29,239 nt of DNA from IMG/VR virus record IMGVR_UViG_3300031607_000014, positions 1-29,239 of that record. One strand, written 5' to 3'. Position numbers and translations under genes: made by a program. Source of the DNA: a virus. Lineage: Duplodnaviria > Caudoviricetes. Below, in pieces: positions 64-29,239 of the stretch; the first letter of the stretch is position 1; each line of letters starts with the position of its first letter. The notes beneath the pieces are model-generated. The model saw only the letters and a program-made list of their open reading frames with translations, was not told the origin of the DNA and searched no databases.

Positions 64-505
64 ATGAAAGACCGATACACAAGACAATGGATCACCGACA
101 ACAGCATCGAAATCGTATCCCAATACGAGGACGGCGAACTAACTATTCGTGCGCTACACTATCAGCTCGTGGCTATCGGGATGACTAACACCCTCCAGCA
201 CTATAAGCGAGTAGTCGGAGCAATGATCGCCTCAAGACGCGACGGAATCATTGGCTACTCTAAGTTTTCTGACCACCGACCGCGAGGCCATTGGCGAAAC
301 AGAATGGGAGCCAGTCAAACTCGAAGCAGAGATAAGCAAAGGGAAGCGTCAGATTGCCCTCTGGATGGAGAGCTATAATCGAAACCGATGGGAAAACCAA
401 GAAAACTACGTCGAAGTATGGATCGAGAAGAAAGCCCTGCAAGGTGTGTTCGCTCCGATCTGCGCTGCCAATGACGTTGCCCTCTGCCCATGCAAAGGCC
501 GTTAA
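64..505 (+). pseudogene. Frameshifted and truncated TopoVI-A/Spo11-like (wHTH + TOPRIM) protein
   Basis: ORF 64..378 has LTIRALHYQLV...HYKRV...SRRDG. ORF 251..505 continues with RWENQENYVEVWIEKKAL...LCPCKG. Removing one C at about 276 (GACCACCGACCGC) joins them as SDHDREAIG. The frame stops at the start of the TOPRIM domain. Confidence 0.65.
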
Positions 506-2047: not shown

Positions 2048-2299
2048 TCACTTCCTTGCGGATTGAGTGCAGCGGTAGGCCGTTACTATTTCACGCACTA
2101 TCTTTTGATGCTCTTGATCCTTCCGCTCTAAGTGCGCAATCAGCATAGGAAAGAACTTGAGCAGCAGCAGGACAACCACCCCAGCCATGCCAGCTTGAAT
2201 TGCCAAGCTATGCCAGCTACCAGCAGCAGGCTGAACTTGACCGATGAACGAGGAGAAGGCAAAGAACCCGCTTGCGATGTAAGGTAGTGAGTTTGTCAT
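2048..2299 (-). CDS. Putative holin
   Basis: 83 aa, two hydrophobic segments, charged C-terminus (ERKDQEHQK...RK), downstream of tail fibre genes. Confidence 0.5.
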   Translation of the reverse strand: MTNSLPYIASGFFAFSSFIGQVQPAAGSWHSLAIQAGMAGVVVLLLLKFFPMLIAHLERKDQEHQKIVREIVTAYRCTQSARK

Positions 2300-2308
2300 T
2301 GTGTTTGT

Positions 2309-2827
2309 TTACAATTTAGCAGGGTCAATCAGTGCCGCTGCAATGAACAACTCATCAAGTTCTGTGGGGGAAAAACCCGCAAGTCCCCCAAGTGTGTTGA
2401 CCATACTTGCAGACCGAACAAAGAAATCAGAATCACTCACAAGGATATTTGCAACTTCCTTTGACTCATCTGGTAACTGGTCTAGGATTGCTGAAAGGTC
2501 CACACCTTTCAAAACTAAGGCAATTTTTAGCTGTGCTTTTGTGACACGTTCTGGGACAACAACAGGCGGAACAAAACCCAAAGCCGCGTTCAACTGTGCA
2601 TCCGAAAGAGTCAAAGTGTGCTCAGTGTCAACGACTGGGTTGCCCTCGGCGTCCGGTTCATTGGCCATGCTGAATGTCAGCGTGTTGGTCTCGGCGTCCC
2701 ATAGCAAGTCAATCGCCTCCATTGGGATCTCGACACCATCCGGCAAAGGTGACAAACGCTCATTGCCTCGGGCGCTTATCAAAACAAAGCCCTGTGGTGT
2801 AACTGTTTTAATGCTTAAATTTTTCAT
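2309..2827 (-). CDS. Tail-fibre-associated protein (chaperone-like)
   Basis: TAATG-coupled to the tail fibre. C-terminal VPERVTKAQLKIAL...LDELFIAAA resembles small proteins that commonly follow phage fibres. Confidence 0.5.
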   Translation of the reverse strand: MKNLSIKTVTPQGFVLISARGNERLSPLPDGVEIPMEAIDLLWDAETNTLTFSMANEPDAEGNPVVDTEHTLTLSDAQLNAALGFVPPVVVPERVTKAQLKIALVLKGVDLSAILDQLPDESKEVANILVSDSDFFVRSASMVNTLGGLAGFSPTELDELFIAAALIDPAKL

Positions 2828-5223
2828 TATGAGTTAAGTTTTTTAAAGTTCGCCCGCACATCGATGTTTGTGGCCCCTGAAGATGTTGCTGTGCGGAGGC
2901 GTTGATCATTGGCAATCTGCGCGGCAGTGGTCGCGGCTGAGATCGAGCCGTCAGCTGCTAATGCAACGCCTGAGTGTAGGCCATTGTGATTGGATCCGTC
3001 GCTCCGCTGGATGATCGTGCCAGAGGAAGTCTCACCCCCCTGATCGATGATCTGGAGGGAATCGATCACACAGTCCGCCGGGATTAAATCCACCGATGCG
3101 GACCCTACAAAATCGTTTGAGCTGGCATCGAGGCCGAATCCCCGAATGTGGCCTGCATCTTTTGGTATTAGGTGTTGTGTGCCTGTCGCCGATAAAATCG
3201 CGTCGTTGTGATTTGTGGATGCGTCGTGAAGTTGTAGGCCTATACCTTCGTCCATTGGGAGGTGGAGAGATGCGCCGATGCGTGTTATTGTCATGCTGTC
3301 AATATACATCGTGCCGTTGTTGATTCTTACCAGTAGATTTCCTGGGTTCCCAACTCCCGTCTTCCATTTAAAACTTACTTTTGTCCAAGCGTCCTTAGCA
3401 GTGACATCCCCTGAAAAATTAGTTTGGGGTTTGATTTCCATCGCGAAAGAGTTTGTCACATTGAAATTAGGATCCCCAGTTTTTATGTAAAACCACAACT
3501 CGCAAACAAAGGTGTAAGCCGCATTAGCCCCAGCTGATGAAATTTGAAACCCGTGGTTCCCTGTCGTGACAATCTTTGCACAAAAATCCCCTGCTTGAGC
3601 TCCGCCAATACTGTCAGCATCACCAGCACCATCGTAGTTAGTGTGAGTCCCATTAAAGGTGGTCGTATTAATTAACACTTGCGCTGTGCTCGCATTTTCC
3701 CCATTTTCGAAATCCTCAAATCCTGTGGCTCCCCACTTGTAATCAGGGTTAGAAGCAAGCCAACCGCTGACCCCTTGCGCGTAAATCTCAGCCGCTTGGG
3801 TTGCTGTTAATGCGGTGTTTAAAATTGCAAAATCGGAAATGATGCCATTCAGATATGTAGACGAAAACCGACCCCCAAACTGGTCAATTACTATATCACC
3901 TGCTAACGTTTCGGTTTCCCCCGCGATTCCGTTGACATACAAAGTCACTGCATCGTCAGCCTCACGGACTATGAGCAAGTCATACACGGTGTCCACTGCT
4001 ATCGTAGATGGAGTATTTAGATAAATAATTGTTGCAGCACTGTTCATCAGCTGCATGTTGGTTGATACATTAAAGCCAAACCGCCCGGCGTCACTGTTTG
4101 ATTTGCCCACGATAATCCCGCTACCGTCAAGCGCACCCGCAGACGCCCGAACAGACAAAGAAAACGCACCTGAGAGTGTCACATCTGGGAAACCCGCCCG
4201 ACCTGCTGTGTCATCAAAGGCCACACCGCCCGCAAACGATTTGTGGTTCAGTTGTCGTGCTGGAATTGCTACTGCTGCTGCTGCACTCGCTGCTGCTGCT
4301 GCTGCATTGATCCCGGTCAGCACCACGTCAGCATTAGTAGCAACCACGTCCAACCCTGTCAGCACCACATCAGCATTAGTAGCAACCACGTCAGCATTAG
4401 TAGCAACCACGTCATCATTAGTAGCAACCACATCAGCATTAGTCAGCACCACGTCAGCCGCTGCTTTAGCCGCATGATGGAGCGCTGAGAACTCAGTGGA
4501 ACCATCTCCACCCGCAGCGACACTCACAGGCGAATCCTCCGCTTTATTCGCCCACTCCTCAGCATAGCCCGCTGCATCCAGTATAGCACTACCATCGATG
4601 ATAATCGCTATATCCCCAGATGCCAGATCAGCCACGATACTATCAGAAGTGTGAGCAGTCAGAGCGTGATAAACGGAGGCAGTCGCAGACACTCGAAACA
4701 TATCATACTTATCATAAGCCGTAGCAGTCGACCACTCGCCTTTCCATTCGCCTAGCTCCCTAGTAAGTGTTAATGCGCCGTTCTGATCGAAGCGAATCAG
4801 CTTTCCAATCCTAGCTGCTGCATCTGGTAACACAAGTGCCGTGCCATCGCTCAAGCTAGACTTCAAGCAGCGAGCAAGCTCTTCGTCTGTCTCCTGCAAG
4901 ATACGAGTGATCTTGTCCAGCGCCTCGCCAATATCTGCAACGAAGAATTTACCATTCGTGCGCAAGGTAAGAAGCTGGCTTTTCGCTGTATTGCGGACGA
5001 TTGAAATGCGCTCGCCTGCGGTTGCTCCAACCATTGTGACTGTGCCACCAGAAGCATCACCTGCGCCTGCAACCGTGTAATGATTCGTGAGCGCAAGCAC
5101 GCCACGAGCATCGCTCACGACGAGCAATTCGCCGTCAATAGAAAACGGGTAAGCAAAGGGTATGCTGTCCGTTGAAGTGGATAATGTTGCGTCCACTCGT
5201 GGTGTTTGTTCGGGAAGGCTCAT
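2827..5223 (-). CDS. Tail fibre / receptor-binding protein
   Basis: T7 gp17-like N-terminal adaptor (FAYPFSI...YTVAGAG...ISIVRNT...EALDKITRILQE), WKGEWSTATAY CBM-like motif, heptad repeats, LamG/ConA-like domain (GIISDFAILNTALTATQAAEIY). Confidence 0.85.
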   Translation of the reverse strand: MSLPEQTPRVDATLSTSTDSIPFAYPFSIDGELLVVSDARGVLALTNHYTVAGAGDASGGTVTMVGATAGERISIVRNTAKSQLLTLRTNGKFFVADIGEALDKITRILQETDEELARCLKSSLSDGTALVLPDAAARIGKLIRFDQNGALTLTRELGEWKGEWSTATAYDKYDMFRVSATASVYHALTAHTSDSIVADLASGDIAIIIDGSAILDAAGYAEEWANKAEDSPVSVAAGGDGSTEFSALHHAAKAAADVVLTNADVVATNDDVVATNADVVATNADVVLTGLDVVATNADVVLTGINAAAAAASAAAAVAIPARQLNHKSFAGGVAFDDTAGRAGFPDVTLSGAFSLSVRASAGALDGSGIIVGKSNSDAGRFGFNVSTNMQLMNSAATIIYLNTPSTIAVDTVYDLLIVREADDAVTLYVNGIAGETETLAGDIVIDQFGGRFSSTYLNGIISDFAILNTALTATQAAEIYAQGVSGWLASNPDYKWGATGFEDFENGENASTAQVLINTTTFNGTHTNYDGAGDADSIGGAQAGDFCAKIVTTGNHGFQISSAGANAAYTFVCELWFYIKTGDPNFNVTNSFAMEIKPQTNFSGDVTAKDAWTKVSFKWKTGVGNPGNLLVRINNGTMYIDSMTITRIGASLHLPMDEGIGLQLHDASTNHNDAILSATGTQHLIPKDAGHIRGFGLDASSNDFVGSASVDLIPADCVIDSLQIIDQGGETSSGTIIQRSDGSNHNGLHSGVALAADGSISAATTAAQIANDQRLRTATSSGATNIDVRANFKKLNS
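4316..4462. repeat. Seven tandem 21-bp repeats (consensus GTAGCAACCACGTCAGCATTA) encoding NADVVAT/NADVVLT heptads
   Basis: Units start at 4316, 4337, 4358, 4379, 4400, 4421 and 4442. An adjacent (GCT)n poly-Ala run lies at about 4268-4305. Confidence 0.95.
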
Positions 5224-5268: not shown

Positions 5269-8200
5269 TTAGGGCATTTGCACGCCCATCTCTCTCATAC
5301 GCCTACGGGTTTCCTTGCGCTCCTCTTCGCGTTGACGCTGTTCACCGCCGCCTGCGTGCCAGTAATACATGGAACCAACGAACGGAACAGAACGCCATAC
5401 TTCAGCGTTGCCTATCGACCAATCCGAATCACCAGTGACGATTGAACTGGAATCTCGGTATGTTTGCTGAAACCACGGAACAGGGAAGGACGTAAGCATT
5501 GCAAGCGACAACACTGGATTCTTGTGCCGCTGAAAATCGTAGTAAAGGAATCGGTTGACTCCTAATATCTTGATGGCAGATGCCGCCAAGGTGTCATCTA
5601 CTTTCGGCTCTTTGCCAGACAGCGTATCGCGAATGAAATCCACGGTTGCCCCGCCGACAAACCAAAGCATATAGAGCCACATCAGCTTGCGCATTCCGTC
5701 GCGGAATAATTTGTAGTCTCGCTTTTCAACTCCAAGTTTCATTTCGCGAATCCCTTCACGCCGCATAATGTCGAATCTCTTCAACATGAATGTCTTTAGC
5801 ATGTAGAAGATTCGGAGGTTCGGGTGCTTTGCATAGCCCTCTGGCATCTCGCTGTAATCTAGCGGCTGGAAGTCCAGAAGGATATTCCAACCAAGCAGAA
5901 CCACGTCTTCAGATTTTACGTTGTCGATCAAGTCTTGCTTGAGCTGTGCGATCCGCGCTGCGTCACCTCCGAAGTATTCCGTAAGCCTGCGCTCCTGTGT
6001 GTCCGTAAGGCGACCACGTTGCGCTGAGTCGCGATATGCACGTATGCCAGAGTTCACTTGAGTGTTCGCCCCTCCTCGACCAAAGAAGGCAACTCCCGCC
6101 TTCTTCATGCCCCAGTCCATAAAGCGACCCATACCTTTTTTCGCGTCGTCGTAATCTTGGCTGAACGACTCTTGCCCAAAGTCTCGAACCATTGACATTT
6201 CATCCTTATCGAAAAGGCTCGCGAAGTAACGAAGGTTTCCAAATCCACGACCCGTAAATACCGCTGTCGATATGTCCTCGATCTGAATCATTGCCACCTC
6301 GAATTTCATCATCGTTGTGATGTAGCCAAGCGAGCGCAACACTTGCAGTCCTTTTTGCATTGCCCCGTTCGTGTGCATTGCTTCCAAGATCGTTTGAACT
6401 TCGGCCTGCTCTGCGCCAACGAGTTCACCCTTAGACACCAAGTCAGCGACCACGGATGCGGCTGACTTCTCGACGTTAACCTTCTTTGTTCCGTTCACGT
6501 CTTCGACGATAGCGGACTGTCCGAAAAACTTCTTCTTCTCAACGTCATCAACTACTCGGTTTATGTATCTGTCAACAGCCTCGAATGGCGTAGAATAGAA
6601 CTCGTCGAACTGGCTTTGCTCAAGTGTTTCAATTGATCGAGCCTTGAAGTTTGGTGGAATGCCAGAACCTTTGTAAGTGCCAGCTAGAATTTGACCGATT
6701 ATCTTTTCCTTGTCAGCGTCCGTAAGCGTGTGTCCACGAGCAGATGCTTCTAGCTTTGCGGATTCAATCGCCGTGTCGAAGATACCTTTAACTTCCATGC
6801 CGAACTCAGCAAGTAAGCCGTCGCGATCTTGCAACCAGCGAGGCCAGTAATTATCGCGCTTTGGTATCTCGTATCCAGATGCAATTGCGTATCTACGGAT
6901 TTCATCCAGCACGATTCGGGTCTGACGGATCGCCTCCGTTAGTCCATCGACCTTATCCATGATGAGCATTGCCTGCTCTTGGTCTCCGTTCGCTAGGTGC
7001 AAGCCCAGCGCTTTACGGTCAGCTTTGTCGAGTTGACGGTATAGGTCACGAGCTGGCTGAACTCGATCACTGTAACGCATCTTGCGCTGACTTACGTTCA
7101 ATCTGTATTCGCGCATTCGGCTGAAGATGCGAACATGCACATTGCGGAGCCGTGAACCCATCGACAAGCCGTTGCGTGCGTAAAGCCATCCTAAGAGTCC
7201 TCTCTCGCTGAAATCGCCTTTAAGCTGTTCTAGGTTTTTCCGCTGGCGTGCCTGCTCTTCTGCGAAGTATGGCATATCCAGTTTTTCGCGTTGCTCATTT
7301 GACTCGCGCTCTGCGGCTTCCATTCGGACGACTTCAGCGCTGCCACCGTGGTGAGCGTTGAACACTTCATCGGAGACTGTAATCTGCAATGTCGGCTCTT
7401 GCGGAAGTGATTGTGACATGACAACACCAGCGCCTCCAACAGCTCGTGGCAATACCCCTGCTTCAAGTGACTCTGCAATCTCTCGATACTGCTCAAAAGT
7501 AAATGACATCGGAGACTCGCCAGACTCACCAGTTTTTACATTCTCAGGGGTGTCCAAATCGAATAGCGACTCTTGGCCTGCCAGCTTACCGAACTCAAGC
7601 GCTACAGCTCTATTCGCAGCGGGAACCACCACATTCAAGTCAATTAAAATGTCTGCCGAGTCGGGAAACTTGTATAGCCCGATCTTGGATGCGTTGCTAA
7701 AGATGACCTCACGGTTAGACTCCAAGAACGATTGAACCATTGCTGGGGTGATTGTCCACGAGTTTGTGTTCACGGAGTTGACGGTTATTACAAGGCCACC
7801 ACCTTCGTAGTTTGTTCCGTCAACATTGAGCGTTGCGCCGTCCTCGTCTTTTCGTGGAACCACTTTCAATCGGTCTAGTTGCTCTTGCACACGAGACGTA
7901 AAGCTCGCGGCCTTTCCTTCGCGGTAAGCCTTAATATCACTCCACCATTCAGAGGTAAGACTTTCGCCTGTAGGTATGCGGTGAAAGATTGCAGCCGCCT
8001 CACGACCCTTTACCACGTAACCCAGATACCCTGCGTCAATGATTTTGCGTTCAGCTATCAATCCAGCAGCACGGCTGTCGAATGGAGCATACTTAGTTTT
8101 GCGTTGGCGAACGTCCAAGGCCGCTTTTGATCGGAACTCTTCTGGGTCATTCTCGAAGTCGTAAAGCAATCCCTCTTCGATCTTCATTGCGTAAAAGTTG

Positions 8201-11200
8201 TCTGGAAGATTCGGCTCTTTTTCATAGTCGTCAGTTCCAATGTAAATGCGATCCATGAACAGGTCTGGATACTCCTGCTTTAGCCGCTTCTCCGTCCCGT
8301 TGATACCGCTTCCGTGGAAGTTAGGATCAAGGTAATCAAGGCCAGCGACTCGGCTGAAATGAACCATTGGAACAACTTGAAATGTCGGTTGCCCCTGCTG
8401 CACGGAATCGCGCATTGCGTCGGTGATGGTGACGCGATGGATGGGGGCGGTTACTGCGCCTTGATTGGCCGCTCGATAACCTTCTGACCATTTCATGCCA
8501 CGCTGTCTCATTACAACCATTGCGTCAGACTCAGAATTATAAACATCGTCAACGACTTGATTGCCTTTACTGTCAACAACAGACCAGCCGCCTACTTGTT
8601 CTTCAATAACACCAGCCTCGACCTTCGGCTTGTTCTTTGAATCAAGCTTCTTGAGGTATCCATTTACATCGTTGACCATCATACGGTCGTAGAACCCCTT
8701 CATGCCTTCGCCGCCGACTTTGAGTCCGTTTCCTTCTATCTTTTTGGTTTCCCCTTCAACTGCTGTATCGACGATCTTCTGCGCAAGCTCCTTGCCTATA
8801 GTGTCCGACAGTTCGGATACTGTAGCCTTATGGTTGTAATAGATCGATTGGCGACTCTGACCATTCACCCCAACAGTGTAATTTTCTCCGTTCTTCTTAT
8901 ATTCGATAGACTCAACCTGCTTACTCAAGTCATACCGACCCGCTTGCGTCTCGCCCGTAGTCCAGCCGATCCATGACTTGCCAGATGCTACGGCATCGCG
9001 CAGGGCGCGTTTAAACATTTGAATATGCCAGTCTTTGCGAAATGGCGCATCAGCGATGAGGTCTTGCACGGAAGTTTTTGGTTTCCATGCCTCCATTCGG
9101 CGAATGAATTCTTCGCGGCTTATTTCCCCCGCGTCGTGCGCCCTGTAAATCTCATCGCGTGTTGCTAAGGCTTCTTCAGCGGAAATTTCCGGTGTGTCGC
9201 CACGATAACCGCTCTTCCTTGCCGTCTGATGGCGATCCGATTGCAGCTCCTCGATGAACAGACCGCCATCGCGCTCATTTAATCGCATATGTGCGACGTA
9301 GTTCGGAATGTCAGCGAAGTGCGAGGATGTGTATTCGCTTGAACGCTTCTGCCTTGATTCCGCAAGCCGCTCATTGTGAGCGATTACATCATCCAAAGTA
9401 GCAAACTCAGTATATTCGTCCAATGTGGATCTTGCTGTCCCTGCTTCTGGATTGAAATCAACCCGTTGGACTCCGATACCATCCTTGACTCCAGCAACCT
9501 TGACCCCACTGGACAGGAGGGTTTTAGCTTTCTCAGCATCGAACGTCACAAGACCCTTAGTAACCACTGGCATGGTCAGCACGACCTCGCGGTAGTTCTC
9601 GCCGTTCGGCAGCACGTATCTGCTGTATCGGGTATCCGTCGCGTTGCCAGTTCCGTAGAACACATTCATCGCAACCGTCTCTGCCCAGTCTTCACGTTGC
9701 ACGATTTGAGGGTCGAGTGCCTTTAGTTGGTCAAATGCCTCGCGGTCGTTCTCGATTCGTAGCGCTAGCGCATCGTCGGCTTCGCCTTGCCACTCTTTGC
9801 CTAGCTCAATAACACGAGGGACAGCGAATGGGCTATCGTAGTCGATCTTCAAGTTGCCGTTGCCACGAGTCACCTCCTCGAACTTCACACGTCCTACATC
9901 ACGCAGATACGCCATCAAGTCATCCTTAGCGACTTTGCCTTTCGAGTCCTTGTTGTCGTCGAGCCACTGCTCAATCCCGCTCCACTTCACCTCGTCGGCT
10001 TTGATGCCGTGCTTCGGGTCTAGTAGTCCCTTGATTTGCTGTGCGGTTGCGGCCTTGCCTTGAATCTTTGCGTCCAGCGTGCGTTCAAGCTGGCTGTAGA
10101 ATGCGGAATCTTCGGCGTTGCGTGTGACTTGGAATGTTGCGTCAGACATTGGCGCTGCCCTTCCCTCTTCCCATGTCCACGAAGGCATCAGCCCTGTCTT
10201 CTGATCTGCAAAGATAGTGTCTTCGACCTTAGCGGTCTGATTGTGATCTCCGTGCTTGCCAAAGTTTAGCCACGAGTTCTGTCCACGAGTTTCGCTTGTC
10301 ATCGCTCCTACGGCTGAACCTTGGAATAAGCGGATGTGTGCCTGCCATGCGTTCTCCTCGCCTCGTGCGCGGAACCCAGAGCCCTCTAAGCCATGACCGA
10401 AAGCATCATGCACTGCGCGGAATAGATCGTTTGCCAAGACCCTACGCTTCTTGCCCTCACTCGATCCGTAAGCCCATTCAATGCCCGTATCTAGCATTAG
10501 CGGATTGTCGGATACGTCCAACTCTGAATCACCAGAACCGAAGCCTGCTTCAGTAGGATAGACTCCCATCGACTTGTTCGCTCGCAAGTCACGCATCGCG
10601 TTGTATGGCGAGTCTCCGTAACCTTTGTCGTTGGATGGATCAATGAACCAGAAGTCAAAGCCAGCGGCTTCTAGTGCTCGGTATTGATCCATTGTCTGCT
10701 GGATCAAATCGTCATACGCTTCACGGACTATTGGATCGCTTGGCGCGTGCTCCATTTCCTCGTATGCCTGCGCAATCCGTGCTGCTCTATCAACGTCAAC
10801 TTTGACGTATTCAGCCTGCCGCTTTACGTCAATTCCTATACTTCTTGCGTAGTCTTCTGCGACTTTGACGAGGGCTTCGTTTGGCCCTGTTGCGCCTTCG
10901 ATTTTTGGAGTGCCTTGAAGCGCCGTAAGCTGCCCACTCGTAGGCCGTCCGCTTCCGTCTCCTCTCGATTGTGATCTATTTGATTGGTCTGTTTCATAAA
11001 TATCGTATCCAGCAGCTCGAAGCGCTGCTTCATCTTTCATAGTGAAGTCACTCGGCATTCCAAGCAATTTCCGCATAGCACCTTCCATGTCTTGCGGAAG
11101 GTTTCCGTTTCGACGCATCTTCACCATTAGCTCTGCTTTGTCCCAGATGACCTTGGCGAAGCGACGAACTAGAGCCATGAAGCCTTTTAGCTCGTCTGGG

Positions 11201-13890
11201 AATAGAGCACGCTCTGCGGCCTTGTCATTCATCGCGTAGGTCGATGTGACGTAATCAATCGTGCGACTAGAAAACCATTCGATTAGTCCGCTGTCAGACT
11301 TGTTGTAGCCTTCGCCGCCATCGTTACCTGTCTCGGCTTCCCATTGCTCGCGCCAGCTCATCACCATGCTGCGGACTGCTGGGGATAGCGTGCCAGCTTC
11401 AGCGCCGTCTGCGATAGACAGAAGCTTCAGATACGACTCGGAAACTTCCTCGATAGGAGCCAGCGGTGAAGCTTTATTTGAAATGCGATTCACCGCTTTG
11501 CCGATCTTTGTGAAGACAGCCTGCGGACTCTTACCAAGCACTGCAATTCGCGCTACGTGATCCGCTGCACTTACCTCGCCACGACTACTCGAAGTCAACC
11601 CAGAGAGCCATGCGATCAGCTCAACGCCTTCTAGGGATGCTGTAGAGGTTCCCGCTACGCTCATGTTGTCGAGAACTTGATCGTCAGTCATGCCTTGCGT
11701 GATCTTTGGAGCTGAAGATCGCGCAGTAGAGACGGCTTGATCTCGTGTCATTTCACCAATGTCAACCATCGCTCGAAGGCTTTGATTCTTTACGACATCA
11801 GCAGATTGTCCACCGTGCAGGCCGATTAAATAATCAAGTGTGGACTTGGTAGCACCCGCTAGTTCATCAAGCTTAGTTTGTTGCCACTCCCATGCGGCAT
11901 TATTCGCGGCATCTTTCGTGTCAAATTCACCGATAGGCTCACTCGTGATAGGGTCAATTAAAAGGTGTTTGCCACCCTTCTCGGATTGAGCAGGCGCTTC
12001 GACTCGACCTGCTGGGATTCTTCCACCATCAGAGGAAGCTGGAAGGTCAACCATGACTGGAACAACGTATGTTCCTTTTGGCGCTTTAGCTTCGACTGCT
12101 TCATTGTGTTCGCGAACTGCTGCAAGCATAGGAGTTGCTTGCTGAAGGGCTTCAACCTGCTCTGCTGTCGTCGCATTCTCAAGGTCGATAGCAGTGCTAC
12201 CAGAGAACTCGTCAAACACGTAGGTCGAACCTTTGTGCGTGAATACAACTTGATCCGTATCGTGTCGGTTGCCTGCTACGATCTCTGTGTCGGGAATAGC
12301 TTCGAGCATACTGTCCTTGTAGGTGTCGTATGCTGCCTTGTCGCCGTTTGCCGCCTTTAGAATAGTGTCGCCTATGCCAGCGCTTTCACCCATTTGTCGA
12401 AGCTCTTTATCGCTACGAACTCTGCGCAACGATCCGCTCATTTCCTTAAAGCCGAAAGGAGTTCCGTCTTTAGCCATGAAATCGTGTTGAAGCTCAGCTT
12501 TGACATCTTGGTTGCCCTTGAATGTCACGGCTCCACCCATAACAAATCCCGCGATACCTCCGTAGAAGGCATCTACCCCACGAGCTTTAACAAACTCTTC
12601 AAGGGTCATGTCAAAGTCATCGTCAATAAACATATTCCGAAACTCCTCAGCCGCTCCCTGTAGAGGTTCTTCAACGGCTTCTTCTAAGCCAGACATTCCA
12701 GCGGCCTTTAATACTGCCTTTAAATTCTCAACTTTCCCCATGTAAGCAACAGTCTCGCGAACACTCTTGTTTTTAAACATAGAGAAAACTTTATCTGCCG
12801 CTCGATTCACACCTAGCTTACGTTCAATCGCAATTTGAACTGCCGTAAGAAATGCTCGGGAACCGTAGTTCTTTTTCGGATCGAAGACTTCGCCCTTTGC
12901 CTCTACCATTTCTTTTTCAGCTTGCCTTACATACTCATACATTGTTGCCGCTCCGAGCGGAGACGTAGCTGGATTCATCAATGAAATAATCATTGGCAAT
13001 GACTCGGAAATCACAGTAGTTGCTTTGCCTACGATAGACCTTCTGACGTTTTCACCGATGTATTCTAAGTCGCCATATTCTTTATCTATTTCGACTATCC
13101 AATCGCCAATCTTGCTGGCCTCTTCCCCATACTCTTTAACCCAATTCCCCGTTCGTGCAGTGAAATCAAGCGACCCTCCTACAATGCCTTCCTTACTTCG
13201 CGCTACGATCTCCTCAACCTTAGCAGTAAGCTTGCCTCGAAACTCTTCCTCGACGGCGTTCTGGGACGCTGACACATCTTCAAAAGTAGATACAGACATG
13301 TCTCCACCGAGCAAAGATTTTACGATGCCAGTTGTTGCCTCTTCGCTTGTAGCATTCCGTAATTTCTCACGGTAATCCATGAGTTCGATCCGATCTTCGT
13401 CGGTCATTTCTAGGCTGTAGGCAAGTGACTCTGCGCCCCTTTCAATGAAGTCTCCAACAACTTGGCTAGTGTCACCAATGGCGTGTTCTGTTGCAGCGGC
13501 AAGTTTACGGGTTCCCCTGCCTAAACCTTCGACACCTAGCGAAGGGACATCCCATGCGTATCGCGCTTTGTCTAAGACGGGAGTTTTGCTTTTAATAGGC
13601 CGCTTCCCTTGCATCTCAGCATACGTCTTCCCGATCTCTGCATAAACTTTGCTCGGATCAGAACTATCGAAGCTTTGCCCTGCGAAGTCGTCAAAGTTGT
13701 CCATCACGTCTTGGTAACGATTAACATCTCCGAACGCACGCTTAGCAAGCCACATAGAGGCGTGCCGCTTGTCCATCTCGGAATCGCGTGTCTCTGGGTC
13801 TTGAAGATCATAAAACTCCCTGCCTTTCGGAGAGAGTATATTGAATCGGTTATCACCAGAGGTGAAGTAGTCTTGAAGTTGGTCAGCCAT
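5269..13890 (-). CDS. Giant internal virion (ejection, gp16-position) polyvalent protein
   Basis: 2873 aa, located after gp14/gp15-like genes and before the tail fibre. Hydrophobic N-terminal helices and several enzyme-like modules (HDAFGH...GEENAW; FIEELQSD; VHFS...LDP...GSG; GQESLFDL). Confidence 0.8.
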   Translation of the reverse strand: MADQLQDYFTSGDNRFNILSPKGREFYDLQDPETRDSEMDKRHASMWLAKRAFGDVNRYQDVMDNFDDFAGQSFDSSDPSKVYAEIGKTYAEMQGKRPIKSKTPVLDKARYAWDVPSLGVEGLGRGTRKLAAATEHAIGDTSQVVGDFIERGAESLAYSLEMTDEDRIELMDYREKLRNATSEEATTGIVKSLLGGDMSVSTFEDVSASQNAVEEEFRGKLTAKVEEIVARSKEGIVGGSLDFTARTGNWVKEYGEEASKIGDWIVEIDKEYGDLEYIGENVRRSIVGKATTVISESLPMIISLMNPATSPLGAATMYEYVRQAEKEMVEAKGEVFDPKKNYGSRAFLTAVQIAIERKLGVNRAADKVFSMFKNKSVRETVAYMGKVENLKAVLKAAGMSGLEEAVEEPLQGAAEEFRNMFIDDDFDMTLEEFVKARGVDAFYGGIAGFVMGGAVTFKGNQDVKAELQHDFMAKDGTPFGFKEMSGSLRRVRSDKELRQMGESAGIGDTILKAANGDKAAYDTYKDSMLEAIPDTEIVAGNRHDTDQVVFTHKGSTYVFDEFSGSTAIDLENATTAEQVEALQQATPMLAAVREHNEAVEAKAPKGTYVVPVMVDLPASSDGGRIPAGRVEAPAQSEKGGKHLLIDPITSEPIGEFDTKDAANNAAWEWQQTKLDELAGATKSTLDYLIGLHGGQSADVVKNQSLRAMVDIGEMTRDQAVSTARSSAPKITQGMTDDQVLDNMSVAGTSTASLEGVELIAWLSGLTSSSRGEVSAADHVARIAVLGKSPQAVFTKIGKAVNRISNKASPLAPIEEVSESYLKLLSIADGAEAGTLSPAVRSMVMSWREQWEAETGNDGGEGYNKSDSGLIEWFSSRTIDYVTSTYAMNDKAAERALFPDELKGFMALVRRFAKVIWDKAELMVKMRRNGNLPQDMEGAMRKLLGMPSDFTMKDEAALRAAGYDIYETDQSNRSQSRGDGSGRPTSGQLTALQGTPKIEGATGPNEALVKVAEDYARSIGIDVKRQAEYVKVDVDRAARIAQAYEEMEHAPSDPIVREAYDDLIQQTMDQYRALEAAGFDFWFIDPSNDKGYGDSPYNAMRDLRANKSMGVYPTEAGFGSGDSELDVSDNPLMLDTGIEWAYGSSEGKKRRVLANDLFRAVHDAFGHGLEGSGFRARGEENAWQAHIRLFQGSAVGAMTSETRGQNSWLNFGKHGDHNQTAKVEDTIFADQKTGLMPSWTWEEGRAAPMSDATFQVTRNAEDSAFYSQLERTLDAKIQGKAATAQQIKGLLDPKHGIKADEVKWSGIEQWLDDNKDSKGKVAKDDLMAYLRDVGRVKFEEVTRGNGNLKIDYDSPFAVPRVIELGKEWQGEADDALALRIENDREAFDQLKALDPQIVQREDWAETVAMNVFYGTGNATDTRYSRYVLPNGENYREVVLTMPVVTKGLVTFDAEKAKTLLSSGVKVAGVKDGIGVQRVDFNPEAGTARSTLDEYTEFATLDDVIAHNERLAESRQKRSSEYTSSHFADIPNYVAHMRLNERDGGLFIEELQSDRHQTARKSGYRGDTPEISAEEALATRDEIYRAHDAGEISREEFIRRMEAWKPKTSVQDLIADAPFRKDWHIQMFKRALRDAVASGKSWIGWTTGETQAGRYDLSKQVESIEYKKNGENYTVGVNGQSRQSIYYNHKATVSELSDTIGKELAQKIVDTAVEGETKKIEGNGLKVGGEGMKGFYDRMMVNDVNGYLKKLDSKNKPKVEAGVIEEQVGGWSVVDSKGNQVVDDVYNSESDAMVVMRQRGMKWSEGYRAANQGAVTAPIHRVTITDAMRDSVQQGQPTFQVVPMVHFSRVAGLDYLDPNFHGSGINGTEKRLKQEYPDLFMDRIYIGTDDYEKEPNLPDNFYAMKIEEGLLYDFENDPEEFRSKAALDVRQRKTKYAPFDSRAAGLIAERKIIDAGYLGYVVKGREAAAIFHRIPTGESLTSEWWSDIKAYREGKAASFTSRVQEQLDRLKVVPRKDEDGATLNVDGTNYEGGGLVITVNSVNTNSWTITPAMVQSFLESNREVIFSNASKIGLYKFPDSADILIDLNVVVPAANRAVALEFGKLAGQESLFDLDTPENVKTGESGESPMSFTFEQYREIAESLEAGVLPRAVGGAGVVMSQSLPQEPTLQITVSDEVFNAHHGGSAEVVRMEAAERESNEQREKLDMPYFAEEQARQRKNLEQLKGDFSERGLLGWLYARNGLSMGSRLRNVHVRIFSRMREYRLNVSQRKMRYSDRVQPARDLYRQLDKADRKALGLHLANGDQEQAMLIMDKVDGLTEAIRQTRIVLDEIRRYAIASGYEIPKRDNYWPRWLQDRDGLLAEFGMEVKGIFDTAIESAKLEASARGHTLTDADKEKIIGQILAGTYKGSGIPPNFKARSIETLEQSQFDEFYSTPFEAVDRYINRVVDDVEKKKFFGQSAIVEDVNGTKKVNVEKSAASVVADLVSKGELVGAEQAEVQTILEAMHTNGAMQKGLQVLRSLGYITTMMKFEVAMIQIEDISTAVFTGRGFGNLRYFASLFDKDEMSMVRDFGQESFSQDYDDAKKGMGRFMDWGMKKAGVAFFGRGGANTQVNSGIRAYRDSAQRGRLTDTQERRLTEYFGGDAARIAQLKQDLIDNVKSEDVVLLGWNILLDFQPLDYSEMPEGYAKHPNLRIFYMLKTFMLKRFDIMRREGIREMKLGVEKRDYKLFRDGMRKLMWLYMLWFVGGATVDFIRDTLSGKEPKVDDTLAASAIKILGVNRFLYYDFQRHKNPVLSLAMLTSFPVPWFQQTYRDSSSIVTGDSDWSIGNAEVWRSVPFVGSMYYWHAGGGEQRQREEERKETRRRMREMGVQMP

Positions 13891-25401: not shown

Positions 25402-25753
25402 GTGATAATCTCCTAATTCGTTCGTTACTGAAGACTCGAAGACAGTAGCTATCGAGCCTGTAATAGATTACCCACGGTAAATCTAAAGGTTGCACTGTCC
25501 ATAGTGAAGCGAGTGCATTACCAGCCGCCATGTAAACGAACCACGCATTGCAATGTTGCAACGGGAACTCGAAGTTCGGGTCAATCAACTCGCACTCTGG
25601 CGCGTCCTTGACGACTGGACGGGCGCAAATGAAATACTCTGTAGTGCTCACGCAGTAACCTTGCCCGAGGTGAGCGTTAATCATCTCGTCCCACGGATAC
25701 GGAGGCTCACACGCCTCGTATGCGGCTTTAGCTTTCCAGATTGGGGCTATCAT
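25367..25753 (-). CDS. Hypothetical protein, possibly GNAT-like
   Basis: ATGA overlap with terL; AWFVYMAAG...LPWVIYYR. Confidence 0.6.
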   Translation of the reverse strand: MIAPIWKAKAAYEACEPPYPWDEMINAHLGQGYCVSTTEYFICARPVVKDAPECELIDPNFEFPLQHCNAWFVYMAAGNALASLWTVQPLDLPWVIYYRLDSYCLRVFSNERIRRLSHGQRIKTKTTT

Positions 25754-27384
25754 CTCCTGCGCCTACCCATGCTCACCTGTGGCTTTGTAGGCAGTCCTTG
25801 GAGGCTTGTGATTGCAGTCCTGTCAACGAGCAAGCCTAAGTGCATTGCTTGATGAGCATAACCAAAACATGTGCAGTAGTGTGATGCCCAATTATGAACA
25901 GGAACCTCCTTGACTGATTGATTATCTCGTTCCATTGCGCAGTGCCAAGCTTCAGCGGAACCAATCAAGCCCACATCGTCCTCTCCGTTCTTTTCGATAA
26001 GACCATCAATCGAGAACTCGCATCGCCCGAACTGCATCTGTGCGATCTTAACGTTATCCCATACATCCATTGGCTTCGGAAGCGGCGGGGCAACAGACTG
26101 CATCCCCATTTGCTGGAAGATCGGATACCACAGTGTCTTTCCGTCATGCGGAAGGAAAATCCCGCCATACCTGTAAGGCTTTTCCGATAACCACTTGCCC
26201 CAGTCTTTAGGAGTTTGAATTTCACTTCCTCCAGACTTCCCCTCTAGGAATAGTATTCTATCTCCAACAGGCTGAAAGATTAAGCATTTAGTATTTTCAG
26301 CGGCTCCTAAGTCGAATACTGCGTAAGTTGGAACCTGCTCATGCCAGCGTATATTATTACTGATACGGCCTTCAGCCCTAGCCTTATCAATCATAGGTGC
26401 ATAAATCTGACCATCATCACGAACAGACCACATCTCTTCGAGTGTAGACGGATATTCGCGCTTCATAAGTGCTCCCTGTCTAGTGGTCTTCTCGACGTAA
26501 TACCAAAGCTTTTGACCTGCCGTTAATTCAATACCATCTGCCGCTAATAAATCAAAATACTCATTATGCTCCTTGTCGATACGATCAGGCGAGCCTTCTA
26601 GCGTGTAGTTAGGTTCCAGCCACCAAGCAAAGAACAACACTGTCCAATCCCGTTTAGTCCTAAGCTCTTCACTAACCTCCAACCCGCTGCGGATAATACC
26701 ATACCAGTCGCCCGCCTTACCGCCCTTGTAAGTGCTTTCAACGAAGCATACGGCATTACTGCCTGATGCGGACGGAATAGCACCAGACATTATCTCTTCA
26801 GACCTTCTAGGGTCTTCGTATGCTATCGGGCCAAGCTCTGAAATGTGGACAAGCTGATTCGTTCCACCGCGAGCATTCTTCCCAGCGGAAACGCTTGAAT
26901 CGTTCGACCACGCCATTTCGCTGTTACGATTCGTAATAAGCCCTGCACCTATCTTCAACTCATGATCGAGGTTATTAAACGCAAACTTGACCTTAGCTAA
27001 CTTTTCCTCCGCATCGTCTCTGGACTGGTCAACGATAGAACATTGCTGACCTTCATCCCAGTAGGATTTGTCGAACGCAATTAAAGCAATAAGAGTGCTA
27101 AATCCAAGCTGCCTTGCTTTTGGAATAGCAAGCCACTGCCTACCGAGAATGAAAACGTAATAAAGAACGACTCGCTGAGGCCAATTAGGGATAAATGGTT
27201 CGGCAGAACCGCCTTCCTTTATCTGAATGCTGTAAAGGTTGCAGATACGAAAAAGAGCGTCACTCACGCAACGCTCCTCGAACTGCTCGTCAGTCATGCC
27301 GTCAGTCACGGCATAGTCTGCGAGGTCAATAGATGGGTAGTCAGTCTTCATTACGCATCGTCTTATGCCACAATTGATAGTCAT
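25750..27384 (-). CDS. terL: Terminase large subunit
   Basis: IPKARQLGFST Walker-A-like motif, LVHISELG Walker B, VEST coupling motif, AVFDLG, FLPHDG and PVHNWASH nuclease motifs. Start may be 27351. Confidence 0.93.
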   Translation of the reverse strand: MTINCGIRRCVMKTDYPSIDLADYAVTDGMTDEQFEERCVSDALFRICNLYSIQIKEGGSAEPFIPNWPQRVVLYYVFILGRQWLAIPKARQLGFSTLIALIAFDKSYWDEGQQCSIVDQSRDDAEEKLAKVKFAFNNLDHELKIGAGLITNRNSEMAWSNDSSVSAGKNARGGTNQLVHISELGPIAYEDPRRSEEIMSGAIPSASGSNAVCFVESTYKGGKAGDWYGIIRSGLEVSEELRTKRDWTVLFFAWWLEPNYTLEGSPDRIDKEHNEYFDLLAADGIELTAGQKLWYYVEKTTRQGALMKREYPSTLEEMWSVRDDGQIYAPMIDKARAEGRISNNIRWHEQVPTYAVFDLGAAENTKCLIFQPVGDRILFLEGKSGGSEIQTPKDWGKWLSEKPYRYGGIFLPHDGKTLWYPIFQQMGMQSVAPPLPKPMDVWDNVKIAQMQFGRCEFSIDGLIEKNGEDDVGLIGSAEAWHCAMERDNQSVKEVPVHNWASHYCTCFGYAHQAMHLGLLVDRTAITSLQGLPTKPQVSMGRRRR

Positions 27385-27677: not shown

Positions 27678-27853
27678 AATTTTGATTTCGTTGATGTTGT
27701 TGATGTTGCGGGATTCCCGCATAGATTGCGCTTGACGGATTCGTTTCGCTGTTTATTGCGAGGAGGCACGAGCGAGCATGTTAGGGCTGCTTCAGCCAGC
27801 GCGATGTAGCGGCATGCGATAAGCCACTCTCGATAGTATTCGTCCTGCGTCAT
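27674..27853 (-). CDS. Small 59-aa protein (MTQDEYYREWLIACRYIALAEAALTC...SKL), not in the ORF track
   Basis: Translated by hand. ATGA overlaps at both ends (with the terS stop and with the next start). Confidence 0.55.
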   Translation of the reverse strand: MTQDEYYREWLIACRYIALAEAALTCSLVPPRNKQRNESVKRNLCGNPATSTTSTKSKL

Positions 27854-28266
27854 TTGCTACGTCCTTTTTTCCTGATGCGGTCAACAAGCGATCCTGAGAC
27901 CTCCTGCTTTTCGGGCTCGTAGAAACCGCTTATCTTGCTGACTTCCCGAAGCGCTCCTGTTGCCTCTGACCCGCTAGACTGAGAGAAGCGCCCTCCACCA
28001 CTGGCAATCTGTGCGAGCGTCTTCAACACGTCCTCTCGGGTCATCACTGCGTTACTGGACTGCTTCTTCCTGCAAAGACTGATGTATTGACTTACTTTTA
28101 CATTATTCAGCGCGTGGCTCGTAGCGGACTCGGAAGCATACTCAGCAATCTTTCCAGCCTCCCACGGCCTCTCGCCGTCGAGGATCGCCTCACACAGCTT
28201 GAACTGCTTCGTGGTCATGGAATCGCGTAGCTCGGCTATGCGGGAGTCGTCGGTAATATTACTCAT
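27850..28266 (-). CDS. terS: Terminase small subunit
   Basis: MTTKQFKLCE...AGKIAEY...LNNVKVSQYI...MTREDVLKTLAQIA...ALREVSKISGFY pattern. GGGAGG RBS; upstream of terL. Confidence 0.85.
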   Translation of the reverse strand: MSNITDDSRIAELRDSMTTKQFKLCEAILDGERPWEAGKIAEYASESATSHALNNVKVSQYISLCRKKQSSNAVMTREDVLKTLAQIASGGGRFSQSSGSEATGALREVSKISGFYEPEKQEVSGSLVDRIRKKGRSK

Positions 28267-28314
28267 TGGTTAAATCCTCCCAGAATGTTGACTCATCGGT
28301 TGGCGTTGTCGAGC

Positions 28315-28370
28315 GTGTAACTAGCCGCTATCCGCAACTGCGTTCCTTGTGCGGAAGCTCTATATTCTCG
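28315..28370 (+). repeat. attC-like site D
   Basis: GTGTAAC-tagcc-GCT(a)TCCGC(a)AC-tgcgttcctt-GT GCGGA AGC-tctat-ATTCTCG. The GTT core is changed to ATT. Confidence 0.65.
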
Positions 28371-28546
28371 AAATAAAAATGAGTCTCGCAATTATTACAC
28401 CAGTCATTCCAAGCGCCCTCGATCTCCTCGGTGTCATCACAGCCGCAACCGGGGCATACGTGTCGAGAGCCAGTCGAGCGGATCAATTCCGAAGCCGCTG
28501 GTGAATTTGTGGCATCAGGTGCCGATTGTTGATTTTGATTATCCAT
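28328..28546 (-). CDS. Small zinc-ribbon protein
   Basis: CPGC...CNNC. GGAG RBS and ATG lie inside the loop of attC-like site C. Confidence 0.65.
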   Translation of the reverse strand: MDNQNQQSAPDATNSPAASELIRSTGSRHVCPGCGCDDTEEIEGAWNDWCNNCETHFYFENIELPHKERSCG

Positions 28547-28593
28547 AATTTTATCTCCGATCCTATTCGGAATTATCCCTCTCTACGTTCTGG
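28464..28593 (+). repeat. attC-like site C
   Basis: CGAGAGC-cagtc-GAG(c)GGAT(c)AATTCCGAA-72 nt-TTCGGAATT ATCC CTC-tctac-GTTCTGG. The AAC core is changed to AGC. Confidence 0.7.
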
Positions 28594-28838
28594 CAATTAA
28601 ACCTACGGGCTTTCCCTTTGTGCGAAGCAAGCAAACCATCTTGCCCACATCGTAGTTGACCTAGTGCGTTACCAATGGCCATTTCAGCGTCTTCCACGGT
28701 GAACAAGATTTGCCCATCCAGTAGCCAGCCGCAGACATATTCCGCTATCTCAAATTGAGAGAATCGCGGTTGATTTCGGCGAGGCTCAGAACCAATCGGT
28801 TGTATCAATTCCTTTCGTTCATTCTTCACTTCAGTCAT
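28563..28838 (-). CDS. Hypothetical cassette-borne protein
   Basis: 91-aa ORF starting within site B and ending within site C. Confidence 0.6.
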   Translation of the reverse strand: MTEVKNERKELIQPIGSEPRRNQPRFSQFEIAEYVCGWLLDGQILFTVEDAEMAIGNALGQLRCGQDGLLASHKGKARRFNCQNVERDNSE

Positions 28839-28858
28839 TATACACCCCCACGTTCGCA
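28786..28858 (+). repeat. attC-like site B
   Basis: TCAGAAC-caatc-GGT(t)GTAT(c)AAT-27 nt-ATT ATAC ACC-cccac-GTTCGCA. Confidence 0.7.
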
Positions 28859-29133
28859 GAAGAAACTTCGCGTAGGTGATACCACTGGTCTTCCATCCGT
28901 TTCGTTCGCCCTCCTCCGTCTAGGATATGGCTACAAAGCTCGCAGGAATCTTCTTCTTCTCTGTCGATCATCGTTTGCCTTAGTTCGTCGGGACTAGGTT
29001 TCTTGTGGAACCACGCGATGAAGTATTCCCCCATCTGGTCATAGTGATTGTATTCGGTAGTTAGTATATATGCTTTCATGGTATCAAAAAAAATGCGAAC
29101 AACGGGATGCACGTCAATTCCGCTATCGCTCAT
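28831..29133 (-). CDS. Hypothetical cassette-borne protein
   Basis: YILTTEYNHYDQMGEYFIAWF.KKP...GGGR...EDQWY.LRE. Starts within site A (alternative start MKAY at 29079) and ends within site B. Confidence 0.7.
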   Translation of the reverse strand: MSDSGIDVHPVVRIFFDTMKAYILTTEYNHYDQMGEYFIAWFHKKPSPDELRQTMIDREEEDSCELCSHILDGGGRTKRMEDQWYHLREVSSANVGVYND

Positions 29134-29154
29134 GAGTGATCCTTTCCGTTATCC
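29094..29154 (+). repeat. attC-like site A
   Basis: TGCGAAC-aacgg-GAT(g)CAC(g)TCA-16 nt-TGA GTG ATC-ctttcc-GTTATCC, with canonical 5/6-nt spacers. Confidence 0.72.
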
Positions 29155-29238
29155 AAAAGAATTAATGATCGCTCGCGCCTGATCGAACTTCTCTTTTTCG
29201 AGCAGTCCAGCGGCAAGTATGATCTCTTCAATCTTCCA
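29149..29238 (-). CDS. 3' end of an ORF running in from beyond the window (...WKIEEIILAAGLLEKEKFDQARAIINSFG*)
   Basis: Open frame from the window edge; its TAA stop lies inside the GGATAAC core of site A. Confidence 0.55.
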   Translation of the reverse strand, partial: WKIEEIILAAGLLEKEKFDQARAIINSFG

Positions 29239-29239
29239 A

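Follow-up and report, generated by a model that had tools for sequence, protein, structure and literature searches.

A phage CALIN with canonical attC sites and reversed genes, recently shuffled and most likely served by an integron integrase in trans

We found that a lake podophage carries, upstream of the gene for its terminase small subunit (terS), a short array of gene cassettes in which the polarity of the attC sites is normal and the genes are what is flipped. The array occupies the right end of the window, the whole stretch of 29,239 nucleotides that was analysed, and extends past its edge in a complete genome. In behaviour it resembles an integron cassette array, but it falls short of a complete integron and the orientation of its genes is atypical. 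Five sites lie on one strand within 1.09 kb, and no IntI accompanies them, an arrangement that corresponds to a CALIN, described as a cluster of at least two attC sites on one strand within 4 kb with no integron integrase (PMC4889954). We conclude, with considerable confidence, that the phage CALIN is genuine, combines canonical sites with reversed genes, has been shuffled recently and is most likely acted on by an IntI in trans.

The window spans the structural module of the phage: terS, the large terminase subunit (terL), a head-tail adaptor, the major head protein, tail proteins and internal virion proteins. Almost all of these genes lie on the - strand. The window constitutes the whole of its own record. 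A search with gene C led to a second record of 38,527 bp (G001), classed as complete with direct terminal repeats, which is 99.4% identical to the window overall and identical to it over 28201-29239. Coordinates in this genome are given as L007; adding 19616 converts them to window coordinates.

Among the 27 proteins of the window that were scanned we found no integrase, which bears out an earlier statement, made in a preliminary description of the DNA, that these 29 kb encode no tyrosine recombinase; the one weak PHROG label of "integrase" (E 1.5e-4) lies beneath a far stronger match to an internal virion protein. The same description had offered two sources for the enzyme, a phage gene beyond the right edge or a host protein acting in trans. 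The complete genome (100% complete) has no match to PF00589, TIGR02249 or PF00239, models that recovered 14/14, 14/14 and 12/14 positive-control genomes, respectively. This result speaks against the first source and supports the second as the likely one. A relative, G008 (97% complete), has no match to PF00589 or PF00239, and the other phage records searched for PF00589 were fragments. The early region of G001 encodes ERF, SSB, an exonuclease, a DnaC-like loader, NinB and RuvC, together with several unassigned ORFs, and the genome may encode a recombinase from an unknown family.

Table 1. The sites, cassettes and genes of the array and its left flank (window coordinates unless stated; boxes are given as R''..R').
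Feature	Coordinates	Strand	Details
terS, fixed left flank of the array	27850..28266	-	phrog_51, E 3e-9
attC S1	28315..28370	+	56 bp; GTGTAAC..ATTCTCG; extra bases A/A; A in place of the G of GTT
Gene A	28328..28546	-	72 aa, Cys-rich; GGAG and ATG in S2 loop; stop within S1
Cassette A	28365..28587	+	223 bp; TT..G unit including S2
attC S2	28464..28593	+	130 bp; CGAGAGC..GTTCTGG; extra bases C/C; decayed R'' triplet (this copy)
Gene B	28563..28838	-	91 aa; ATG overlaps the gene C stop within S3; own stop within S2
Cassette B	28588..28852	+	265 bp
attC S3	28786..28858	+	73 bp; TCAGAAC..GTTCGCA; extra bases T/C
Gene C	28831..29133	-	100 aa (ATG in S4 loop) or 82 aa from 29079; stop within S3
Cassette C	28853..29148	+	296 bp; ends match 7/7 (GTTCGCA / TGCGAAC)
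attC S4	29094..29154	+	61 bp; TGCGAAC..GTTATCC; extra bases G/G
Gene D, 3' end in window		-	60 aa; TAA within core
Cassette D, start	29149..29239	+	runs past the window to S5; 248 bp in G001
attC S5	L007 9726-9786 (beyond the window, G001)	+	GGATAAC..GTTCTCC

A pattern scan of the + strand recovered sites of the form R''-N5-L''(extra base at position 4)-loop-L'-N5/6-R', four in the window and a fifth, S5, in G001 (Table 1). Further sites past the right edge had been anticipated, with the next cassette predicted to end near GGATAAC, and S5 begins with these letters. In all five sites, of 56-130 bp (the published range for attC is 57-141 bp; PMC5371416), L'' pairs with L' with at most one mismatch, the extra base lies in the L'' arm and the spacers are 5-6 nt. 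The unpaired bases previously reported for the + strand left arms (A/A, C/C, T/C and G/G) were reproduced by the scan, and the claim of mostly GTTC-type cores agrees with xTTC in three of the four R' cores in the window, that of S1 beginning with ATT. The conserved triplet is intact in S3, S4 and S5 and changed in S1 (ATT) and S2 (AGC); undecayed variants of the S1 and S2 boxes are present in lake contigs. Beyond the core triplets S1-S5 share nothing, and an exact-repeat search did not reveal them. The variable core bases match the neighbouring site in 15 of 16 cases, against 9 of 20 for the site's own two cores. Only 48 nt separate the terS start from S1, with no promoter-like site on the + strand, and attI has no general consensus.

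Such a cluster is not expected by chance. After 400 dinucleotide shuffles of the 1.2 kb that holds the five non-overlapping sites, 315 sequences contained no site, 82 one and 3 two, and each of 30 other 1.2-kb segments of G001 contained at most one. A covariance model built from 27 bacterial attC sites detected S5 (E 4.6e-5), S3 (0.006) and, weakly, S4 (0.28), which are its top three matches in G001 and all lie on the + strand; S1, S2 and most of the relatives' sites were not detected by this model. Plain MFE folds were weak (-2.8 to -13.5 kcal/mol for the bottom strand, slightly below the top strand in 5/5) and sometimes left the R box unpaired.

The preliminary description had taken the array for a variant system of opposite polarity. 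That view is not supported: the ranking by the bacterial-trained model speaks against it, and the moving unit, which runs TT-body-R''-hairpin-G with the crossover at R' G|TT, is the canonical bottom-strand unit. GTTC cores and variable bulges, also held to be distinctive, were compared with bacterial cassettes. The regions adjacent to IntI in the bacterial genomes G005, G006 and G007 contained no core-matched cassette; the control comprises 29 core-matched cassettes at 7 loci, 15 of them from one locus, after 4 non-adjacent pairs had been dropped from 33. Control cores began GTTG in 15, GTTC in 12 and GTTA in 2 cases, only 5 of 29 had the form GTTRRRY, and the first extra base was G, T, C or A in 13, 9, 5 and 2 cases. 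We thus rejected GTTC cores or variable bulges as the sign of a new recombinase, both being ordinary in the controls, which are integron cassettes from the phylum of a Verrucomicrobiales genome.

What distinguishes the array is its genes. All four cassette genes are antisense to their sites, as had been stated earlier and as holds for the array ORFs, and the ORF that typically, if not obligatorily, stands on the top strand upstream of an attC site is absent; the genes lie on the bottom strand and follow the direction of the other phage genes. Among the 29 control cassettes, an ORF covering at least 75% of the body was sense in 20, antisense in 1 and neither in 8. The starts and stops inside the hairpins are predicted from the sequence: for genes A, B and possibly C an in-frame ATG falls within the gene's own hairpin, gene D would start just past R'', and an ATG overlaps a stop in S3 and S4. 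When 15 phage sites from G001, its relatives, L093 and L094 were tested (two being S3 variants), the frame in which the AAC of R' is read as a codon met a stop inside the site in 15/15, against 10/15 for each of the other frames, and it was the longest upstream open frame in 14/15. After FNCQN, protein B continues into a different C-terminal tail in each of four contexts, and more distant gene B homologs differ in the hairpin-derived N-terminus. S1 has no gene of its own and provides the tail and stop of gene A; it precedes different cassettes in L005 and in run X2. Beyond S5 in G001, gene E ends inside S5, and its homolog adjoins the single site of G008, so that E looks like the fixed right flank. 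Gene C matches phrog_6933, of unknown function, from the 29079 start (E 2e-9), and its homologs at 49% identity (L002, L003) have no flanking sites. Genes A, B and D had no function in Pfam or PHROGs, nor gene B in Atlas, and none of the RNA datasets among the runs listed contained the array sequence.

Since matching ends fit a canonical unit cut at R' as well as an opposite-polarity unit cut at R'', we used lake contigs to decide which unit moves; in attC the bottom strand is cut in R' and the top strand in R'' (PMC5027507). Contigs from 8 of the 24 runs listed were compared (7 from salt lakes, 1 from lake water), the best-matching run possibly being the source sample of the phage. The junction set consists of the listed loose ends (21 of 29 and 22 of 36) within L007 8690-9790, with repeats merged across runs, plus two joints. 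Among these 25 listed junctions, 15 fall within 6 nt of the R' G|TT and 4 at the R'' AAC; of the remainder, 5 are at other points within sites and one is at a secondary G|TT. Counted by place, 11 of the 20 listed lie at R', a target of 5.9% (P ~3e-9). The contigs give the presence of variants rather than rates or dates, and recombination is deduced from the junctions.

Individual contigs display the moving units. An 8,803-bp contig from run X9 contains exactly cassette A with S2 between foreign flanks on both sides, and variants of cassette A occur in which R'' reads CGAGAAC and the upstream G|TT is restored. In run X6, unit B reaches a depth of 120 with flanks near 0-6. Cassette C stands behind two other hairpins at G|TT (runs X6 and X9), S2 precedes at least six other cassette bodies, and one joint passes over B, C and D, at the cores. 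Hairpins are also found on new genes: near-identical copies of S2, S3, S4 and S5 precede other genes with the break at R'', and in run X9 an S4 hairpin with one mismatch sits on a different gene. In L005 the junction falls 8 nt short of the crossover, within the S1 right arm, and right arms in L005 and L093 are hybrid. Junctions at R'' (4) or inside arms (5), among those listed, point to attC swapping and homologous recombination. In run X4, a cassette B variant preceded by another hairpin begins at a secondary G|TT (L007 8980-8981), 9 nt into the body. A joint in run X9 that goes back 296 letters was considered as a circular form of cassette C and rejected, because 141 foreign letters precede it; these indicate a different cassette with an S4-like hairpin.

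The same cassettes occur in other phages. Cassette B is present in the IMG/VR phage contigs L093 and L094 at 95-96% identity, starting at the core G in both, which indicates that the gene travels with its 5'-end hairpin and is cut at the canonical point. The copy in L093 lies before a terL gene with no BLASTP similarity to the one in the window, at a bare GTT with no upstream hairpin; the copy in L094 lies between other reversed sites. Of nine related loci scanned upstream of terS, seven have one or two antisense sites, the other two (L072 and L073) lack a site, and no locus carries one in the sense direction; the L077 record has no DNA upstream of terS. Two of the seven have the same site. 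The site sequences otherwise differ between relatives, indicating that the position upstream of terS gains and loses cassettes. In viral contigs, the S4-loop pattern matched G001 alone, and the S5 pattern matched G001 and one further contig by chance.

In bacterial genomes the S5 pattern gave 27 matches, of which 25 lack the right arm and two are true attC sites. Both belong to one Verrucomicrobiales MAG (G005), which has an IntI over the cut-off; their genes are sense, and their arms agree with those of S5 at 21/23 and 18/21 positions. A similar pattern gave nine single matches in 151 genomes, and IntI is encoded in 39 of 151 genomes of the phylum of this MAG. The sedentary chromosomal integrons of that phylum share with the phage array the site anatomy, the side of the extra base, GTTC and GTTG cores and 5-6 nt spacers, and the G005 arms are about 90% identical to S5. 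The genes of these integrons, however, stand upstream of the attC on its top strand and beside intI, whereas intI and a recognisable attI are missing from the phage array, and its genes are reversed. The host of the phage probably belongs to Verrucomicrobiota, as judged from sequence comparison. Capsid matches in this phylum reach only 23-33% identity, in 28 of 401 genomes and with no control phylum compared, and no cassette body was found in the five bacterial genomes searched.

The use of the standard crossover in unrelated phages, together with the absence of a detectable recombinase from G001, suggests that an IntI from outside, probably the host's, acts on the array. In this mechanism an IntI from the probable Verrucomicrobiota host would recombine the bottom strand during infection, by attC x attC recombination or by insertion at GWT, the consensus at which IntI inserts cassettes (Loot et al., bioRxiv 10.1101/2022.09.11.507474). 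With neither attI nor Pc present, selection would retain the cassettes that phage transcription can read, and the hairpin would thereby become the start signal of its own gene and the tail and stop of its neighbour's. Rarer top-strand exchange at R'' and ERF-type homologous recombination would redistribute hairpins from gene to gene. Should the genes run in the direction of replication, as their common orientation and G-rich coding strand suggest, the bottom strand would be the lagging-strand template, the orientation in which recombination is higher (PMC5371416). Counted against the involvement of IntI are the 10 of 25 listed junctions away from R' and the decay of S1 and S2.

A rival proposal is that the sites are domesticated relics, kept as translation signals, and that present-day movement of units relies solely on homologous or microhomology recombination (phage ERF, NinB, RuvC). 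This is rather unlikely in our judgement. G001 does encode ERF, SSB, exonuclease, NinB and RuvC, five of the 25 listed junctions are inside sites, the right arms in L005 and L093 are hybrid, and S1 has both a decayed core and no gene; yet cassette B stands at a bare G|TT in L093, where the upstream hairpin is absent, units A, B and C each lie behind unrelated hairpins with the break at the G, and variants of A with intact cores persist in the same lakes. Very unlikely, in turn, is a recombinase for the opposite strand, phage-encoded or Xer-like, that would cut R'' and move each gene with the hairpin at its 3' end. Such an enzyme would account for the four of 25 listed junctions at R'' with near-identical hairpins on other genes, for the gene B homologs with different hairpin-derived N-termini and, like the canonical cut, for the matching unit ends. 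Against it, R' junctions outnumber R'' junctions by 15 to 4 among those listed, A and B move with the hairpin at the 5' end of the gene, and the complete genome has no recombinase match. Xer sites are double-stranded and 28 bp long, unlike these variable hairpins, and the array differs from Xer/dif and phage tyrosine-recombinase systems in having neither PF00589 nor a conserved double-stranded site.

We give still less credence to the idea that the hairpins are RNA-level elements, for translation coupling or attenuation, with an incidental likeness to attC. On the mRNA strand they do overlap start and stop codons as well as ribosome-binding motifs. However, the neighbour-matched cores, the DNA junctions at G|TT and the near-identity to chromosomal attC need DNA recombination, an Rfam search of the array gave no match, and promoter and terminator scans stayed at chance level, with no terminator-like site coinciding with a hairpin. 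An additional RNA role alongside IntI-driven exchange is compatible with the data.

Phage CALINs are already known, and the present array is a variant of them. Qi, Rajabal, Ghaly, Tetu and Gillings (2023) described 17 of them and found IntI1 active on 5/6 sites, including two H101 sites at which the bottom strand recombined better than the top (PMC9892861). Like the present array, these CALINs have several attC sites, short ORFs and no intI. Re-examination of the H101 record (KR534323 75919-77987) placed the top strand of four sites on + and the annotated genes on -, and MW202573 (~2069-3738) has at least three reversed sites; the TJE1 array has the canonical orientation, and P12002L has one canonical site and one reversed site with an 8-nt spacer. 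The latter, attC1, failed the IntI1 assay (PMC9892861). In the main text of that paper the words "antisense", "opposite" and "reverse" occur 0 times, and the layout of H101 (there PH101) is termed typical. Our search, in literature mostly outside subscription journals, found no description of reversed phage cassettes. The phage studied here differs in that its genes start and stop within sites, whereas H101 genes do not overlap theirs, and in that natural exchange between phages is visible. Insertion at attG and the resulting SALINs would fit cassette B at the bare GTT of L093, the single sites of G008 and other relatives, and the array end in E, but have been described, in the text available, on bacterial chromosomes with ordinary cassettes (10.1101/2022.09.11.507474). 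Cleavage of the attC top strand at the R'' AAC, at lower frequency (Nivina et al. 2016, PMC5027507), could explain the four R'' junctions among those listed; top-strand recombination inverts gene and site together, whereas here the gene alone is reversed, array-wide.

The integron chemistry thus appears to serve phages for gene swapping, with the gene flipped. Integrons are regarded as bacterial, often anti-phage devices, and attC strand choice is conventionally tied to the sense insertion of promoterless genes behind Pc. The natural variants reveal where cuts fall and offer small testable substrates for strand choice without attI; they also offer a way to account for part of the mosaicism of phages at short genes whose ends are unusual, and annotation that assumes an ORF followed by its attC would mis-assign such cassettes. 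One hairpin on different genes, and one gene with different hairpins, gives a handle on cassette genesis. More tentatively, and as a proposal that we think more likely wrong than right, phages of this host group might keep their own reversed cassette pool, circulated among unrelated phages by the host integrase, with attC as a portable translation module and R'' exchange attaching hairpins. If so, attC would give a start to its own gene and a frame-locked tail and stop to its neighbour's, and R'' exchange of hairpins onto new phage genes would be a visible route to cassette genesis, an unsolved problem.

Elsewhere in the genome, other exchanges and irregularities were seen. The terL gene (window 25750-27384) is 56% identical to its counterpart in L005 (2072-3733) between flanks that are 98% identical on both sides, indicating that most of terL was exchanged. 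In the 798-aa tail protein (window 3823-4216, G001 3183-3580), about 130 middle residues are replaced by a divergent segment, adjoining a short repeated peptide, while the genomes are otherwise 99.4% identical; this looks like the swap of a putative receptor-binding domain. A stretch of 344 bp (L007 10521-10866), about the length of a phrog_554/Kyano_Gp96-like gene and away from any attC site, is absent from one contig of run X2. A gene matching phrog_6247 ("DNA topoisomerase"; window 64-505, L007 18824-19265, + strand) is divided between two frames and cut short close to the end of the genome, in the same way in G001 as in the window, and a pentapeptide-repeat protein (L007 18270-18800, + strand) is among the few genes against the main direction. 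The virion protein of 2,873 aa (window 5269-13890) has a single short PHROG match.
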